A stretch of 7,932 bases of DNA from a virus (IMGVR_UViG_2529293240_000012:1-7932), one strand, 5' to 3'; shown: positions 3,213 through 7,932, counted from the first letter of the stretch. The notes: generated by a model from the sequence alone, not told the origin. Made by a program: numbers and translations.

Positions 3213-3276
3213 TGAGGTAGCCTGAGTTTAACGGACACTCCTTCCTGAAATAGAATGGCATCAGAAGGAGCTAATA

Positions 3277-3579
3277 ATGAGCAGAAAAACCCAACGTTAC
3301 TCTAAAGAGTTCAAAGCCGAAGCTGTCAGAACGGTTCTTGAAAATCAACTTTCGATCAGTGAAGGCGCTTCCCGATTATCCCTTCCTGAAGGCACTTTAG
3401 GACAATGGGTTACCGCCGCCAGAAAAGGGCTCGGTACTCCTGGTTCCCGCACGGTGGCTGAACTGGAATCTGAAATTCTGCAACTGCGTAAGGCGTTAAA
3501 TGAAGCTCGCCTTGAGCGAGATATATTAAAAAAAGCAACAGCGTATTTTGCACAGGAGTCGCTGAAAAATACGCGTTAA
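3277..3579 (+). CDS. IS600-like transposase OrfA (HTH DNA-binding subunit)
   Basis: 100-aa ORF with AGGAG 8 nt upstream of the ATG. C-terminal leucine-zipper-like region (ELESEILQLRKALNEARLERDILKKATAYF) typical of IS3-family OrfA. Slippery run A AAA AAA at 3528-3534 near the 3' end. Confidence 0.85.
   Translation: MSRKTQRYSKEFKAEAVRTVLENQLSISEGASRLSLPEGTLGQWVTAARKGLGTPGSRTVAELESEILQLRKALNEARLERDILKKATAYFAQESLKNTR
3528..3534 (+). other. Probable programmed -1 ribosomal frameshift heptamer (A AAA AAA) joining IS600 orfA to orfB
   Basis: The heptamer is in the X XXY YYZ phase of orfA. A -1 slip gives ..KKSNSVFCTGVAEKYALIEQWRQQFPIEAMCQVFGVSRSGYY.., which is the orfB frame and a typical IS3-family OrfAB junction. 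Confidence 0.6.
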
Positions 3580-3614
3580 TCGAACAATGGCGACAACAAT
3601 TTCCCATTGAAGCG

Positions 3615-4434
3615 ATGTGTCAGGTATTTGGTGTATCCAGGAGCGGTTATTACAACTGGGTACAGCATGAACCCTCAGACAGAAAACAAAGTGATGAGCG
3701 GCTAAAACTGGAGATTAAGGTGGCACATATCCGCACTCGCGAAACATATGGAACCCGGCGGCTCCAGACGGAGCTGGCAGAGAATGGCATCATCGTTGGT
3801 CGTGACCGACTGGCACGTCTTCGTAAGGAGCTAAGGCTACGCTGTAAGCAGAAACGCAAGTTCAGAGCGACTACGAACCCGAACCACAATCTGCCAGTTG
3901 CGCCAAATCTGCTGAACCAGACGTTCGCTCCTACAGCACCAAATCAGGTCTGGGTGGCGGACCTGACGTATGTTGCCACACAGGAGGGATGGTTGTACCT
4001 CGCTGGCATCAAAGATGTTTATACGTGCGAAATTGTCGGCTACGCCATGGGAGAGCGCATGACAAAAGAGCTGACAGGTAAAGCCCTGTTTATGGCGCTC
4101 AGGAGCCAGCGCCCACCTGCCGGGCTAATCCACCACTCTGATCGAGGTTCACAGTACTGCGCATACGATTACCGGGTCATACAGGAGCAGTCTGGTCTGA
4201 AAACATCAATGTCGCGTAAAGGTAACTGTTACGACAACGCTCCGATGGAAAGCTTCTGGGGAACGCTAGAAAAATGAGAGCCTGAGCCACTATCGTTTTA
4301 ATAACCGGGATGAAGCCATCTCAGTAATACGGGAATACATTGAGATTTTCTACAATCGTCAGCGTCGTCACTCTCGTCTGGGGAATATCTCCCCGGCAGC
4401 CTTCAGGGAAAAATATCATCAGATGGCTGCTTAA
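3615..4434 (+). pseudogene. IS600-like transposase OrfB (DDE catalytic subunit), interrupted by a frameshift near 4265-4277
   Basis: The ORF from the ATG at 3615 ends at TGA 4275-4277 after 220 aa (..ESFWGTLEK*). The +1 frame continues immediately as NESLSHYRFNNRDEAISVIREYIEIFYNRQRRHSRLGNISPAAFREKYHQMAA to 4434, the conserved IS3-family OrfB C-terminus. 218+1+53 = 272 aa, the expected intact length. Consistent with a single-base insertion. Confidence 0.75.
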
Positions 4435-4477
4435 AAAAAGAACAAATGGTAGTGTCCGCTATTGCCAGTACACCTCA

Positions 4478-4602
4478 CTGTTCAGCATGGTTGTAACGAC
4501 AATTTCGGTGAAATACTTAGTGGGTAGCTCCTGACCGAATACCAGTACAGTTTCTTTGTCAGCGCTTAGTGCGATATCCAGTTTGCGATAAGTAATAGAC
4601 AT
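4478..4602 (-). pseudogene. 5' stub (41 codons) of a gene cut off by IS600; possibly the N-terminus of the ClpP-like protease
   Basis: ATG at 4600-4602 with AAGGAG 7 nt upstream. Encodes MSITYRKLDIALSADKETVLVFGQELPTKYFTEIVVTTMLN, then runs into the IS600 right end and stops 6 codons inside it. Weak resemblance to the ClpP N-terminal beta-strand region (..KERVIFLTGQVED..IVAQML..). Not in frame with the 3' part across the IS. Confidence 0.35.
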
Positions 4603-4707
4603 ATTTGTTTCTCCTTTTGAAAAGATGTTTTAAAAAGATTGAACTTATCGGTCTTCCATAGGTATTCCTACGGCGTCTCCCCGTATCTTGGTCAGTTCAA
4701 AAGGTGG

Positions 4708-4724
4708 TGCTAGCTGTGCTAGTG
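4708..4724. repeat. 17-bp exact repeat TGCTAGCTGTGCTAGTG containing the palindrome CTAGC-TGT-GCTAG (copy 1, intergenic)
   Basis: Identical 17-mer also at 4937-4953, with flanks similar over about 21 bp. This copy lies 34 bp downstream of the 74-aa ORF stop and is followed by a (TGA)4 run. Confidence 0.6.
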
Positions 4725-4757
4725 GTGATGATGATGACGATGAACTACGTGGGTTAA

Positions 4758-4982
4758 TTACATGAAATCTCTTGGGGTCAGCCCTGCGTCAACCGCCATG
4801 AGACAGAGGGCAGCCTTAGAGTAATACGGGCGGATTTCCTTGGCAGGCAGACCCAGAGTAGCTATCAGCGCCTTGGTGGGTACTACCATCAGGCGTAACG
4901 CCTTACGGCCTTCTGGTGTCCTTGGGTCAATCTTGATGCTAGCTGTGCTAGTGATGTTGGTGCCATTTGTGTTATTATTCAT
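4758..4982 (-). CDS. Hypothetical small protein (74 aa), translationally coupled to the upstream Rha-family gene
   Basis: ATG at 4980-4982 overlaps the Rha gene stop (minus strand ..CATGAATAA..) and is preceded by GGAGGAGG. Asn/Thr-rich N-terminus followed by a more ordinary 50-aa region. I recognise no family. Confidence 0.5.
   Translation of the reverse strand: MNNNTNGTNITSTASIKIDPRTPEGRKALRLMVVPTKALIATLGLPAKEIRPYYSKAALCLMAVDAGLTPRDFM
4937..4953. repeat. 17-bp exact repeat TGCTAGCTGTGCTAGTG (copy 2, inside the 5' end of the 74-aa ORF)
   Basis: Exact copy of 4708-4724 in the same orientation, 229 bp away. On the minus strand it encodes ITSTAS near the N-terminus of the 74-aa protein. Confidence 0.6.
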
Positions 4983-5676
4983 GAATTACCTCCTCCAGCC
5001 TTGCTACTGCCTGTAGGTGTTGCTGTTTAGCAGCGTCGCTTCCATGAACCGCTATGACCTTTCCGCGCATCTTGAGTACGTTTTCAGGTCGGCTGAAGAA
5101 CTCCAGTCCCTTGGCGTTAAACCGAATGTTTATACCGTTCGGGTTGAATCGATGGTCAGTAGGTTTGATAATTCGAAAGTATTCCGCATAGTCTGGATTG
5201 ACTGACCACTCGCCACTGAAAGGATGTACTCGGAACAACTTGCGCTCTTTCTTAAGGATGGTCATCAGTTTCTGAGCGGGTAGACCATTGGCCTTGCAGT
5301 AATCGCCCCAAGTCACGCCTCGACGGTTAGCCGACTGAATGACCGCTCGTTTCTTCTGGTCTTCCAGTTGAAGGACTCTCTGTTCTAACGCCTGAATATG
5401 GTCGTAGCATTTAGCACGGAGGCGAGCAGAATAACCAGCGACCAGAATAAAGGTATGCTTTCGGTCTAGGCGATACATTACCCGGCTCTCGCCTTTAGCG
5501 TCCTTGTATACTTCCTCGCTAACCGGCTCAGTTTTGAGCGCGTTAAGCTCCTCAACCATATTGCGAATATCACGCAGGACATTTCGGTGTGCCTTGCCTG
5601 TCATCTCGGCAATTTCAACTGAGGTCATGGAGATAAGCTGGTCAAGGTTAATGACGCTGATTCCTTGTTGAGACAT
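4975..5676 (-). CDS. Phage regulatory protein, Rha family (antirepressor-like; N-terminal Rha domain plus a C-terminal domain of uncertain type)
   Basis: From the ATG at 5674-5676 (AAGGAAA about 8 nt upstream) the product is 233 aa. N-terminus MSQQGISVINLDQLISMTSVEIAEMTGKAHRNVLRDIRNMVEEL matches the Rha-domain signature (..EIAE.TGK.H.NVLRDI..). The longer ORF-track start at 5772 adds an implausible Leu/Val/Arg-rich extension and has no ribosome-binding site. Confidence 0.7.
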   Translation of the reverse strand: MSQQGISVINLDQLISMTSVEIAEMTGKAHRNVLRDIRNMVEELNALKTEPVSEEVYKDAKGESRVMYRLDRKHTFILVAGYSARLRAKCYDHIQALEQRVLQLEDQKKRAVIQSANRRGVTWGDYCKANGLPAQKLMTILKKERKLFRVHPFSGEWSVNPDYAEYFRIIKPTDHRFNPNGINIRFNAKGLEFFSRPENVLKMRGKVIAVHGSDAAKQQHLQAVARLEEVIHE

Positions 5677-5818
5677 AGCTTGATTTCCTTTTGTTTGCAC
5701 CCTGAAGCCGCACCCCACTGGCCTACTCAAAGTCCCCAAGCGAAGGGAGACCAGCAGGACAACAGGATGCAAACAGAATGACTTTGAGATTGAATGAATG
5801 AATGGTGATGATTGTGTC

Positions 5819-5836
5819 GTAGCTGTGCGGAGCTAC
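5819..5836. repeat. Inverted repeat GTAGCT-GTGCGG-AGCTAC upstream of the Rha-family gene; shares TAGCTGTGC with the 17-bp repeats
   Basis: 6-bp arms with a 6-bp spacer, about 145 bp upstream of the Rha start and about 50 bp from the IS2 left end. The 9-mer TAGCTGTGC is common to all three sites. Confidence 0.3.
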
Positions 5837-5977
5837 TGTATGGTGAAGCGCGAGAGGTGGAACTTTGGGAGAGACACGTGGTGCTATAGACTGGCCCCCT
5901 GAATCTCCAGACAACCAGTATCACTTATTTAAGTGATAGTCTTAATACTAGTTTTTAGACTAGTCATTGGAGAACAG

Positions 5978-6343
5978 ATGATTGATGTCTTAGGGCCGGA
6001 GAAACGCAGACGGCGTACCACACAGGAAAAGATCGCAATTGTTCAGCAGAGCTTTGAACCGGGGATGACGGTCTCCCTCGTTGCCCGGCAACATGGTGTA
6101 GCAGCCAGCCAGTTATTTCTCTGGCGTAAGCAATACCAGGAAGGAAGTCTTACTGCTGTGGCCGCCGGAGAACAGGTTGTTCCTGCCTCTGAACTTGCTG
6201 CCGCCATGAAGCAGATTAAAGAACTCCAGCGCCTGCTCGGCAAGAAAACGATGGAAAATGTACTCCTCAAAGAAGCCGTTGAATATGGACGGGCAAAAAA
6301 GTGGATAGCGCACGCGCCCTTATTGCCCGGGGATGGGGAGTAA
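5978..6343 (+). CDS. insC: IS2 transposase OrfA (InsC)
   Basis: 121-aa product [41 protein letters not shown].. from the ATG at 5978 with GGAGAA upstream. The ORF track starts at 5933, but that start lies partly in the terminal inverted repeat. Slippery A AAA AAG at 6295-6301. Confidence 0.9.
6295..6301 (+). other. IS2 programmed -1 frameshift site (A AAA AAG) for the OrfAB fusion transposase
   Basis: The heptamer is in the orfA phase (gca AAA AAG tgg) at the start of the orfA/orfB overlap. This is the known IS2 frameshift window. Confidence 0.8.
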
Positions 6344-7206
6344 GCTTAGTCAGCCGTTGTCTCCGGGTGTCGCGTGCGCAGTTGCACGTCATTCTCAGAC
6401 GAACCGATGACTGGATGGATGGCCGCCGCAGTCGTCACACTGATGATACGGATGTGCTTCTCCGTATACACCATGTTATCGGAGAGCTGCCCACGTATGG
6501 TTATCGTCGGGTATGGGCGCTGCTTCGCAGACAGGCAGAACTTGATGGTATGCCTGCGATCAATGCCAAACGTGTTTACCGGATCATGCGCCAGAATGCG
6601 CTGTTGCTTGAGCGAAAACCTGCTGTACCGCCATCGAGACGGGCACATACAGGCAGAGTAGCCGTGAAAGAAAGCAATCAGCGATGGTGCTCTGACGGGT
6701 TCGAGTTCTGCTGTGATAACGGAGAGAGACTGCGTGTCACGTTCGCGCTGGACTGCTGTGATCGTGAGGCACTGCACTGGGCGGTGACTACCGGCGGCTT
6801 CAACAGTGAAACAGTACAGGACGTCATGCTGGGAGCGGTGGAACGCCGCTTCGGCAACGATCTTCCGTCGTCTCCAGTGGAGTGGCTGACGGATAATGGT
6901 TCATGCTACCGGGCTAATGAAACACGCCAGTTCGCCCGGATGTTGGGACTTGAACCGAAGAACACGGCGGTGCGGAGTCCGGAGAGTAACGGAATAGCAG
7001 AGAGCTTCGTGAAAACGATAAAGCGTGACTACATCAGTATCATGCCCAAACCAGACGGGTTAACGGCAGCAAAGAACCTTGCAGAGGCGTTCGAGCATTA
7101 TAACGAATGGCATCCGCATAGTGCGCTGGGTTATCGCTCGCCACGGGAATATCTGCGGCAGCGGGCTTGTAATGGGTTAAGTGATAACAGATGTCTGGAA
7201 ATATAG
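6301..7206 (+). CDS. insD: IS2 transposase OrfB (InsD, DDE catalytic domain)
   Basis: 301-aa ORF starting at GTG 6301, matching IS2 InsD as I recall it; uninterrupted. Confidence 0.9.
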
Positions 7207-7830
7207 GGGCAAATCCAGAGAGTTCTCCGCTTCATATTGCTCAAAGAGGCTCGCTATGGTAATGCTAGGCGTAACTTCTGGTTTTACTTCTGGAGCACTA
7301 ACAGATAGGGACACAGGGGCTTGGTCATCTTGCCGATCAATATCATTAAAACGATCGACGTAATCTATCAGAGGCTGACTATCTCCCGCTTCGATACGCC
7401 TCATACAGGCTTTTAGCACCTTCAGGGCCTCATTGATGTAACGATGCTGGTCAATACTTAGCGGCTCACTAGCCAGAGCATCGGTAAGGCTCTCACCAAG
7501 TTCTCCGTATTGGTCCCGGTAGATATCCCTCATGTCAGGCTCAAAGAGATCTGAACGGCCCATAGACAGTTCACACTCAGCGATGTCCTTAAGGTGCTCC
7601 CTCATCTCCTCATAGGTAGCGTTGGGTCTGTCTGCGTGTATTGCCTTGAGTGCTGCCTTGATGTGCCTTGAGTGAGCCATAGCGGTGCGTCTATCCTTGG
7701 TCCGTAATGATACTGAGGTCATTCTATCATTGTTTGATTGTCTGACCCGAAGACGGAAGTAGTAGACGCCGTTACGCTGGTAGAGATAGGAGACGGCTGG
7801 AAGTTTGTGACTACTGGATAGCTGAATCAT
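7177..7830 (-). CDS. Tyrosine integrase-like protein, N-terminal fragment (arm-type DNA-binding domain); 3' end replaced by IS2
   Basis: N-terminus ..[38 protein letters not shown].. fits the arm-binding motif of phage integrases (compare the ..SLGTKDKRQA.. segment I recall from DLP12 IntD). The last 13 codons and the stop lie inside the IS2 right inverted repeat (7177-7217), so the native gene is cut at 7218. No downstream catalytic domain in the window. The frame is also open upstream of the ATG at 7830 to the window edge, but that extension does not look coding. Confidence 0.45.
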
Positions 7831-7932
7831 ATGTCTGTATGCCCTGAGAGGGTTACACAGTGGGTTACAGTAAGTAACTCTGCAAGGAGGCTTAAAGCCA
7901 TATCCCTTAGGATTCAGTAAGTTGGAATACTT

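Follow-up and report, generated by a model that had tools for sequence, protein, structure and literature searches.

IS2, a member of the IS3 family, transposes by a copy-out/paste-in route that involves figure-of-eight and minicircle intermediates and does not disrupt the donor site; a simple insertion of the element produces 5-bp direct repeats (PMC3299598). [quoted passage not shown] In the pattern described by Hawkey et al. (2020, PMC7373316), an expanded IS breaks up a gene and lies at the edge of missing DNA. The S. flexneri locus examined here conforms to that pattern, with IS2 and a nearby IS600 as the elements concerned, but here the junction is found within the remnant of a prophage-borne island and not within a metabolic gene.

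The closest relatives of this island are those in the chromosomal glyU gene of Escherichia coli strains such as LR-64-1, 21AR0133, 14EC001 and FT130, by actS/xdhA, which carry integrases of the same family (93.6% and ~82% nucleotide identity). They share with the S. flexneri island the tRNA-Gly 3'-end attachment sequence and the order of integrase, spacer and Rha/KilA-N gene. In contrast with these islands, the one in S. flexneri sits in a phage-borne tRNA-Gly(UCC) gene and has lost ~2 kb at IS2, as well as everything past the start of the DUF6971 gene at IS600.

Results

The arrangement is found in a closed chromosome

The window, by which we mean the whole 7,932-bp stretch of DNA that was analysed, corresponds in reverse orientation to AFOW01000038.1, a contig of the draft assembly GCA_000217895.2, which is tabulated as S. 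flexneri J1713 (PMC6397287). All 7,932 bp are collinear with the chromosome of S. flexneri 3a J17B (CP100042.1) at 99.95% identity, the only differences being two substitutions and two single-base indels, and the J17B chromosome was closed and circularised from PacBio RS II and Illumina data (PMC10732043). Both IS2 junctions are present together in this closed chromosome. The left junction is also crossed by the independent short-read contigs L009 and L010 (29 bp into IS2), and the right junction occurs, identical, in a second contig of the draft, AFOW01000009.1 (L006).

AFOW01000009.1 shares positions 5887-7932 with the window and diverges from it at the left end of IS2, beyond which it carries orfB of another IS3-family element, putatively IS629-like. 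Since J17B has the arrangement of the window, AFOW01000009.1 most likely passes, by way of IS2, into sequence that flanks another copy of the element. The window IS2 also has private SNPs at 6261 and 6638 that are absent from AFOW01000009.1, J17B and K-12, and these could be real changes or consensus noise from collapsed repeats. Taken with the fact that the window is an entire contig of a 2011-era draft, both the departure of the second contig at the IS2 left end and the private SNPs would suit a contig mis-joined through a collapsed IS2 repeat, in which the two flanks were never truly linked. Against such a mis-join, the circularised J17B chromosome has the exact arrangement of the window over 7,932 bp; tested in this way, an assembly artefact appears essentially excluded and scarcely merits credence. 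Because J17B, L009/L010 and L006 carry the junctions, the arrangement is genuine and does not stem from a misjoin at a repeat.

The IS2 copy is complete and lacks a target duplication

The complete IS2 occupies 5887-7217 on the plus strand (1331 bp), with ends that read TAGACTGG from 5887 and ...CAAATCCA up to 7217. An ungapped comparison with K-12 IS2A (NC_000913.3, 381260-382590) gave 99.3% identity, with nine substitutions and no indels. Identity was 99.7-99.8% to copies on S. flexneri virulence plasmids, and most among the plasmids listed have at least five IS2-matching places at that identity. The left inverted repeat (IRL, 42 bp, 5887-5928, plus strand) and the right inverted repeat (IRR, 41 bp, 7177-7217, plus strand) were delimited with lengths taken from PMC3299598. 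IRL, which starts with TAGACTGG, differs from K-12 at 5918 and 5928, with a further substitution just outside it at 5929; these correspond to element positions 32, 42 and 43, and the same variants are found in the J17B copy. By its identity to the virulence-plasmid copies, the window element belongs to the Shigella IS2 sub-population, unlike K-12 IS2A. IRR ends in CA-3' and is the same as in K-12 IS2A, with no mismatch between the two elements beyond 6786.

Both transposase reading frames are preserved. The InsC-type orfA (5978-6343, plus strand, 121 aa) matches Pfam HTH_Tnp_1 (E = 3.6e-19) and carries a single amino-acid change relative to K-12, E95V, and the InsD-type orfB (6301-7206, plus strand, 301 aa), which contains the DDE domain and matches HTH_21, rve and rve_3, likewise carries one, K113R; both changes are private to the window copy. 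The programmed -1 frameshift heptamer A AAA AAG was read directly from the sequence at 6295-6301 on the plus strand; it lies in the zero frame of orfA (6293 being a codon start), and a -1 slip leads into the orfB frame, which contains 6301. The window element is therefore like K-12 IS2A in its length of 1331 bp, its IRL and IRR ends, its overlapping orfA and orfB and its A AAA AAG site, features that identify it as IS2, and it appears structurally able to transpose, although this activity is putative.

The two copies differ in their flanks. K-12 IS2A has ATTAC on either side, a perfect 5-bp duplication, and since it is bracketed in this way both the IS2 boundaries used here and the expectation of a 5-bp duplication are validated. 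The window copy has no such duplication, a signature of simple insertion that is not required of IS2. The left flanking 5-mer, TGCTA (5882-5886), has no repeat on the right side, where the 5-mer GAGAG (7218-7222) forms the first bases of the kept integrase sequence, and the two match at none of five positions. Displacement of a boundary, such as by a minicircle spacer base at IRL, was rejected as an explanation, as moving either IS2 boundary by up to 3 bp yielded no shared 5-mer by eye. An earlier note on this DNA had described an IS2 with both transposase ORFs and the frameshift site intact and with no 5-bp target duplication; reading frames, Pfam matches and the comparison with K-12 agree with the former point, and the latter stands with boundaries checked against K-12 IS2A.

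IS2 truncates an integrase gene next to a Rha module

To the right of IS2 lies the 5' remnant of a tyrosine-recombinase (integrase) gene on the minus strand (7218-7830, 204 codons), with 93.6% nucleotide identity to relatives. The ORF runs from 7830 to 7177 and encodes 217 aa, comprising 204 integrase codons (7830-7219) and then 13 codons into the IS2 end, the first of which spans the junction (...EQYEAENS, followed by IS2-derived residues). Pfam returned only a sub-threshold DUF6538 match for this ORF, and no match to PF00589, the C-terminal catalytic domain (R..HxxR..Y), within 7177-7830. Full-length relatives (542-544 aa) have PF00589 at residues 334-523, past the break at approximately residue 204, indicating that the catalytic domain is wholly gone. 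The gene is without 335 codons and, judging by the full-length relatives, the missing 3' half would start with ...CAGAACTGGAAA, encoding QNWKPATL. The retained part is homologous to bona fide integrases and lies near a tRNA attachment site, which assigns it to this family, and tRNA-Gly is found directly past the window end in L006 and L007. The gene at 7218-7830 is accordingly a remnant and not a functional PF00589 member.

A protein search with the 204-aa remnant found no near-identical relative with an intact integrase: it returned only relatives at no more than 87% identity and fragments, one of which, the paralogous P0031, was 94% identical over 42% of the query. P0031 is an S. flexneri 'integrase, partial' cluster of 278 aa with 79 members, represented by an 835-bp contig. 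As a candidate for the missing half of the integrase it was ruled out: its DNA (L016) spans the breakpoint and overlaps the kept positions 7218-7477 at only 95.1% identity. P0031/L016 is instead a paralogue or another allele of the family.

To the left of IS2, a gene for a Rha-family regulator (4975-5676, minus strand, 233 aa) matches Pfam Phage_pRha (PF09669, E = 1.2e-17), scoring 64.6 bits against a Pfam gathering cut-off of 29.9 over residues 49-131 of a 265-aa ORF. Downstream of it, and part of the same island module, is a 74-aa ORF (4758-4982, minus strand) that always accompanies Rha. When the products of these two genes were looked up as exact proteins, they were present in J17B, in J1713 and otherwise only in ~1.4-kb contigs with IS600 and IS2 as their bounds. 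Between the Rha gene and IS2, 210 bp of upstream spacer are retained (5677-5886), with spurious ORFs only. A promoter scan of this remnant found none on the Rha strand, its sole match being no better than those in shuffled sequence, and Rfam models matched nothing but tRNA-Gly genes in the window and in the spacers of relatives. The gene content at both sides is thus as the earlier note had it, with an integrase-like ORF that reads from 7830 into the IS2 right end, finishes on IS-derived codons and is devoid of its catalytic domain, and a non-coding 210 bp, free of any credible ORF, that leads into the Rha gene.

IS600 (3213-4477, plus strand), identified by its inverted repeats and by an orfA and orfB with HTH_Tnp_1 and rve domains, forms the other edge of the island remnant, and homology to E. 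coli islands begins precisely at this edge, at 4477/4478. Its flanks read CAG and CTG and show no 3-bp duplication. IS600 abuts a 5'-truncated protease-capsid gene, and the genes for lysis, terminase and portal have been lost.

Both flanks of IS2 derive from one family of islands

Genes annotated as site-specific integrases match the right flank (7218-7932) in 138 complete E. coli genomes. Highest in identity, at 93.6%, are the 544-aa integrase genes of LR-64-1 and 21AR0133, which run 1,007 bp past the breakpoint and lie near tRNA-Gly (glyU), actS and xdhA. Alignment of the right flank to the intact integrase genes of the related loci L001 and L002 starts exactly at 7218. On the other side of IS2, the Rha region (4477-5652) matches the islands of LR-64-1 and 21AR0133, and the Rha gene is syntenic with the Rha genes of E. 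coli islands. In L001 and L002 the Rha gene is closely followed on its downstream side by homologous DNA and annotated hypothetical genes; there, a small ORF and a DUF6971 gene come after the Rha/KilA-N gene.

The spacer of L001 and L002, the loci with the best integrase match, is unrelated to 5653-5886. The left flank (5674-5883) is ~90% identical to positions 7001-7205 of L004/L005, which lie just upstream of a KilA-N/Rha-like gene and represent the first ~200 bp of a spacer of 990-1215 bp without a large ORF. Homology to E. coli relatives ends at 5883, with CTA at 5884-5886 unmatched and AGT in its place in the relatives, a mismatch that may reflect simple divergence or a mosaic boundary.

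All five E. coli relatives inspected (L001-L005) have the Rha/KilA-N gene, a gap and the integrase in this order on one strand, with a gap of 1.0-1.7 kb that contains no large ORF and integrases of 530-544 aa. The spacer without annotated genes measures 990-1289 bp; in L003 it spans ~1.0 kb and is followed by an extra 609-bp ORF. tRNA-Gly (glyU) follows the integrase in four of the five, and L003 sits in the ynfE/F region. The distance between the homologues of 5886 and 7218 is 1,792 bp in L004, 2,020 bp in L005 and ~2,060 bp in L001. As no relative closer to the window than 93.6% on the right or ~90% on the left turned up, the missing interval is sized on diverged and mosaic relatives.

A 420-bp query composed of the two flanks joined together found one or both halves in 370 E. 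coli genomes, at a median of two separate places per genome, but never as contiguous sequence (0 of 5,426 complete E. coli genomes). Scanned for exact matches to the flanks, viral contigs yielded the J1713 contig alone, or nothing. No intermediate or empty site was found either, be it an IS2 that still has its duplication, at one site or the other, or a stage with two IS2 copies.

The junction is therefore real, its flanks are parts of one element that keep their ancestral orientation and order, and the DNA that separated them has been lost. The view expressed in the earlier note that this IS2 marks a rearrangement junction is supported, the search for a genome in which 5886 and 7218 adjoin having found none, and its reading of IS2 at a deletion junction with loss of the catalytic half of the integrase holds as well. 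Its suggestion that two unrelated segments were joined does not, as the two flanks come from neighbouring stretches of a single island, in ancestral order and on the ancestral strand. A translocation or inversion need not be invoked for flanks that derive from the same element.

The island lies in a tRNA gene of a decayed prophage

Past the end of the window, J17B and AFOW01000009.1 carry tRNA genes for Met-CAT, Arg-TCT, Thr-TGT and Gly-TCC, and this four-tRNA cluster comes shortly after a gene for a lambdoid antiterminator Q. The cluster also occurs in free phages, PhiR47_1 among them, where holin, lysozyme and Rz genes come next. Homology between phages of the PhiR47_1 type and the S. flexneri locus stops exactly at the tRNA-Gly 3' end. 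The native tRNA-Gly gene of the phage ends in ...GGGTTCGATTCCCGCTGCCCGCTCCA, and that of S. flexneri in ...GGGTTCGATTCCCTTCGCCCGCTCCA, then TGACCTTTCTTAAAG, an ending that equals the glyU-type 3' end plus island sequence known from E. coli. These tRNA-Gly ends imply that the island integrated site-specifically into the prophage's own tRNA-Gly gene. The window as a whole is thus dead prophage DNA patched together at IS-bounded deletion scars.

Discussion

Based on the data presented above, the IS2 at 5887-7217 very probably marks an internal deletion of ~1.8-2.1 kb within one island of a decayed prophage. A small integrative island, consisting of an integrase gene, a repeat-rich spacer of ~1 kb and a Rha module, had entered a lambdoid prophage of S. 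flexneri. After one IS2 had inserted, a second would have landed nearby in the same orientation, and homologous recombination between the two direct copies could then have looped out the DNA between them. The deletion would have taken ~1.0 kb from the 3' end of the integrase gene, which encodes residues ~205 to 544 and with them the entire catalytic domain, as well as ~0.8-1.0 kb of the adjoining spacer. On this model, TGCTA and GAGAG would be single halves of two different target duplications, and the 5-bp flanks are unlike because the DNA between two sites was lost. Unlike flanks that bracket missing DNA are the classical footprint of recombination between direct copies or of an adjacent deletion mediated by transposase. 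As the reciprocal product of a deletion between direct repeats is a lost circle, partners of TGCTA and GAGAG are not expected at other IS2 copies. Following the deletion, the island would be unable to excise, and the Rha module would keep only 210 bp of its native upstream DNA.

The same internal deletion could have arisen in one step through the IS2 transposase, a variant that is compatible with our main conclusion and that we regard as possible but somewhat doubtful. Here, a single IS2 would have inserted at one of the two sites with a normal duplication, and an active junction, for instance that of a minicircle in the course of reintegration or of an (IS2)2 tandem dimer, would have attacked a nearby target in the same molecule, with loss of the intervening DNA. 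The ends, ORFs and frameshift site of this copy are intact, the resulting end structure would be the same as from the two-copy route, and tandem dimers of IS3-family elements are highly reactive and produce adjacent deletions. No feature of the sequence favours the transposase, however, and many IS2 copies are available in Shigella for RecA-dependent recombination; moreover, the usual minicircle pathway spares the donor site, and adjacent deletions are not its routine product (PMC3299598). While the sequence alone fits both routes, we lean modestly toward recombination between two copies, given the many near-identical IS2 copies, the deletions between IS copies that have been described and the intact donor normally left by transposition. 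Far less probable is recombination between distant IS2 copies, by inversion or translocation, that would have joined unrelated segments and left the 3' half of the integrase gene surviving elsewhere. Such an event would be in keeping with the heavy rearrangement of Shigella genomes at IS copies (PMC7373316) and with AFOW01000009.1, in which an identical junction between integrase remnant and IS2 adjoins a different left flank, but closed J17B agrees with the window and not with that contig, P0031/L016 overlaps 7218-7477 at 95% and is not the missing half, and the flanks keep the ancestral order, strand and approximate spacing of one island family. A simple insertion followed by point mutations that erased its 5-bp duplication has nothing in its favour other than the intact IS2, and is refuted by the spacing of the flanks in relatives (1.8-2.1 kb apart and never contiguous) and by the 335 absent integrase codons; together with the complete mismatch of the two 5-mers, this leaves that history with next to no probability.

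The preferred reading, an internal deletion bounded by IS2, is an ordinary, textbook result of the expansion of IS in Shigella. No description of this particular junction was found in the two S. flexneri genome papers citing these accessions. The context of the junction is mildly more interesting than the junction itself, given an island inserted in a prophage-borne tRNA gene and the repeat-rich spacer of its relatives. It is conceivable, though rather unlikely, that the interrupted element was a phage-satellite-like island residing inside its helper prophage, from which the putative origin and the recombinase active site would have been deleted by the IS2-bounded event. Its parts could have been a glyU-type integrase, a spacer of ~1 kb with iteron-like and AT-rich repeats as a putative origin, and a Rha/KilA-N regulator, and its site may have been the prophage tRNA-Gly(UCC) gene between Q and the lysis genes, where insertion may have left a hybrid tRNA. 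If this were true, the IS2 event would still be ordinary, and the novelty would lie in the destroyed element.

For annotation, the entry for the gene at the right of IS2 should read integrase pseudogene (5' fragment), cut by IS2 and accompanied by an IS-bounded deletion, instead of hypothetical protein of 217 aa. More generally, the absence of a target duplication is a reliable sign of deletion or recombination at an IS. Beyond annotation the importance of the locus is slight, but it provides a clean, well-documented example of IS2 and IS600 eroding mobile elements in Shigella and locking an island in place.

A second deletion junction at IS600

The IS600 copy at window positions 3213-4477 is not bracketed by a 3-bp target duplication (the flanking triplets are CAG and CTG), and it sits between the island's DUF6971 gene, truncated to 47 aa compared to 136 aa in E. 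coli, and a protease-capsid gene of the prophage that has lost its 5' end. Because IS600 lacks a duplication and joins a truncated island gene to a truncated prophage gene, it is a second IS-bounded deletion junction, in addition to that at IS2. The lysis, terminase and portal genes of the prophage are absent.

Comparison with the closed S. flexneri 3a chromosome of J17B revealed one additional A in the window at position 4268 (CTAGAAAAA in the window, CTGAAAAA in J17B), which introduces a frameshift into the IS600 orfB of the draft contig, as well as another one-base difference, a single G near position 37. A sequencing error in the draft could account for either of these, instead of a true mutation.

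The IS2 copy and a conflicting contig

The window IS2 carries private substitutions at 6261 and 6638, corresponding to OrfA E95V and OrfB K113R, neither of which was found in the orthologous J17B copy, in AFOW01000009.1 or in the reference K-12 IS2A. These changes may be true, or they may be consensus noise derived from collapsed IS2 repeats. AFOW01000009.1 (L006, 11945-12270), a second contig from the same assembly as the window, repeats window positions 5887-7932, comprising IS2 and the integrase remnant. To the left of IS2, this contig carries the orfB of another IS3-family element, with the flank GCCAC. This left side probably reflects either a misjoin at a repeat or the sequence next to a different IS2 copy.

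Integration site and a second integrase fragment

The island is inserted into a tRNA-Gly(UCC) gene belonging to the tRNA cluster (Met, Arg, Thr, Gly) of a lambdoid prophage, downstream of the antiterminator gene Q. The insertion does not lie in chromosomal glyU. Just past window position 7932 (L007, 7422-7732), comparison with L018 (3253-3360) and with an E. coli relative at glyU (L001, 9708-9814) indicated that the tRNA-Gly at the island junction is a hybrid, with a phage-type 5' part and a glyU-type 3' end of ~13 nt; by eye, this joining creates mismatches in the acceptor and T stems.

Other S. flexneri assemblies contain a further integrase fragment, from the family of the window remnant (protein cluster P0031) and spanning residues ~118 to 395; an example is the 835-bp contig L016 (GCA_026144965.1), whose DNA is 95% identical to window positions 7218-7477 and runs on past the IS2 breakpoint. 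This fragment may represent a chromosomal, glyU-linked integrase copy, and the very short contig perhaps lies between repeats.

The spacer lost at IS2

In relatives, ~1 kb separates the integrase gene from the Rha module (L004, 7004-7993, in E. coli). No Rfam match was found in this spacer, and its ORFs in L004 are all short (≤70 aa), with none annotated. The L004 spacer also contains direct-repeat arrays, with a 10-bp unit present three times, another 10-bp unit 4.5 times and an AT-rich 49-bp unit 2.9 times, that are reminiscent of a replication origin with iterons or of a regulatory region, a role that is putative. The IS2-bounded deletion removed all but the first ~200 bp of this spacer from the window.
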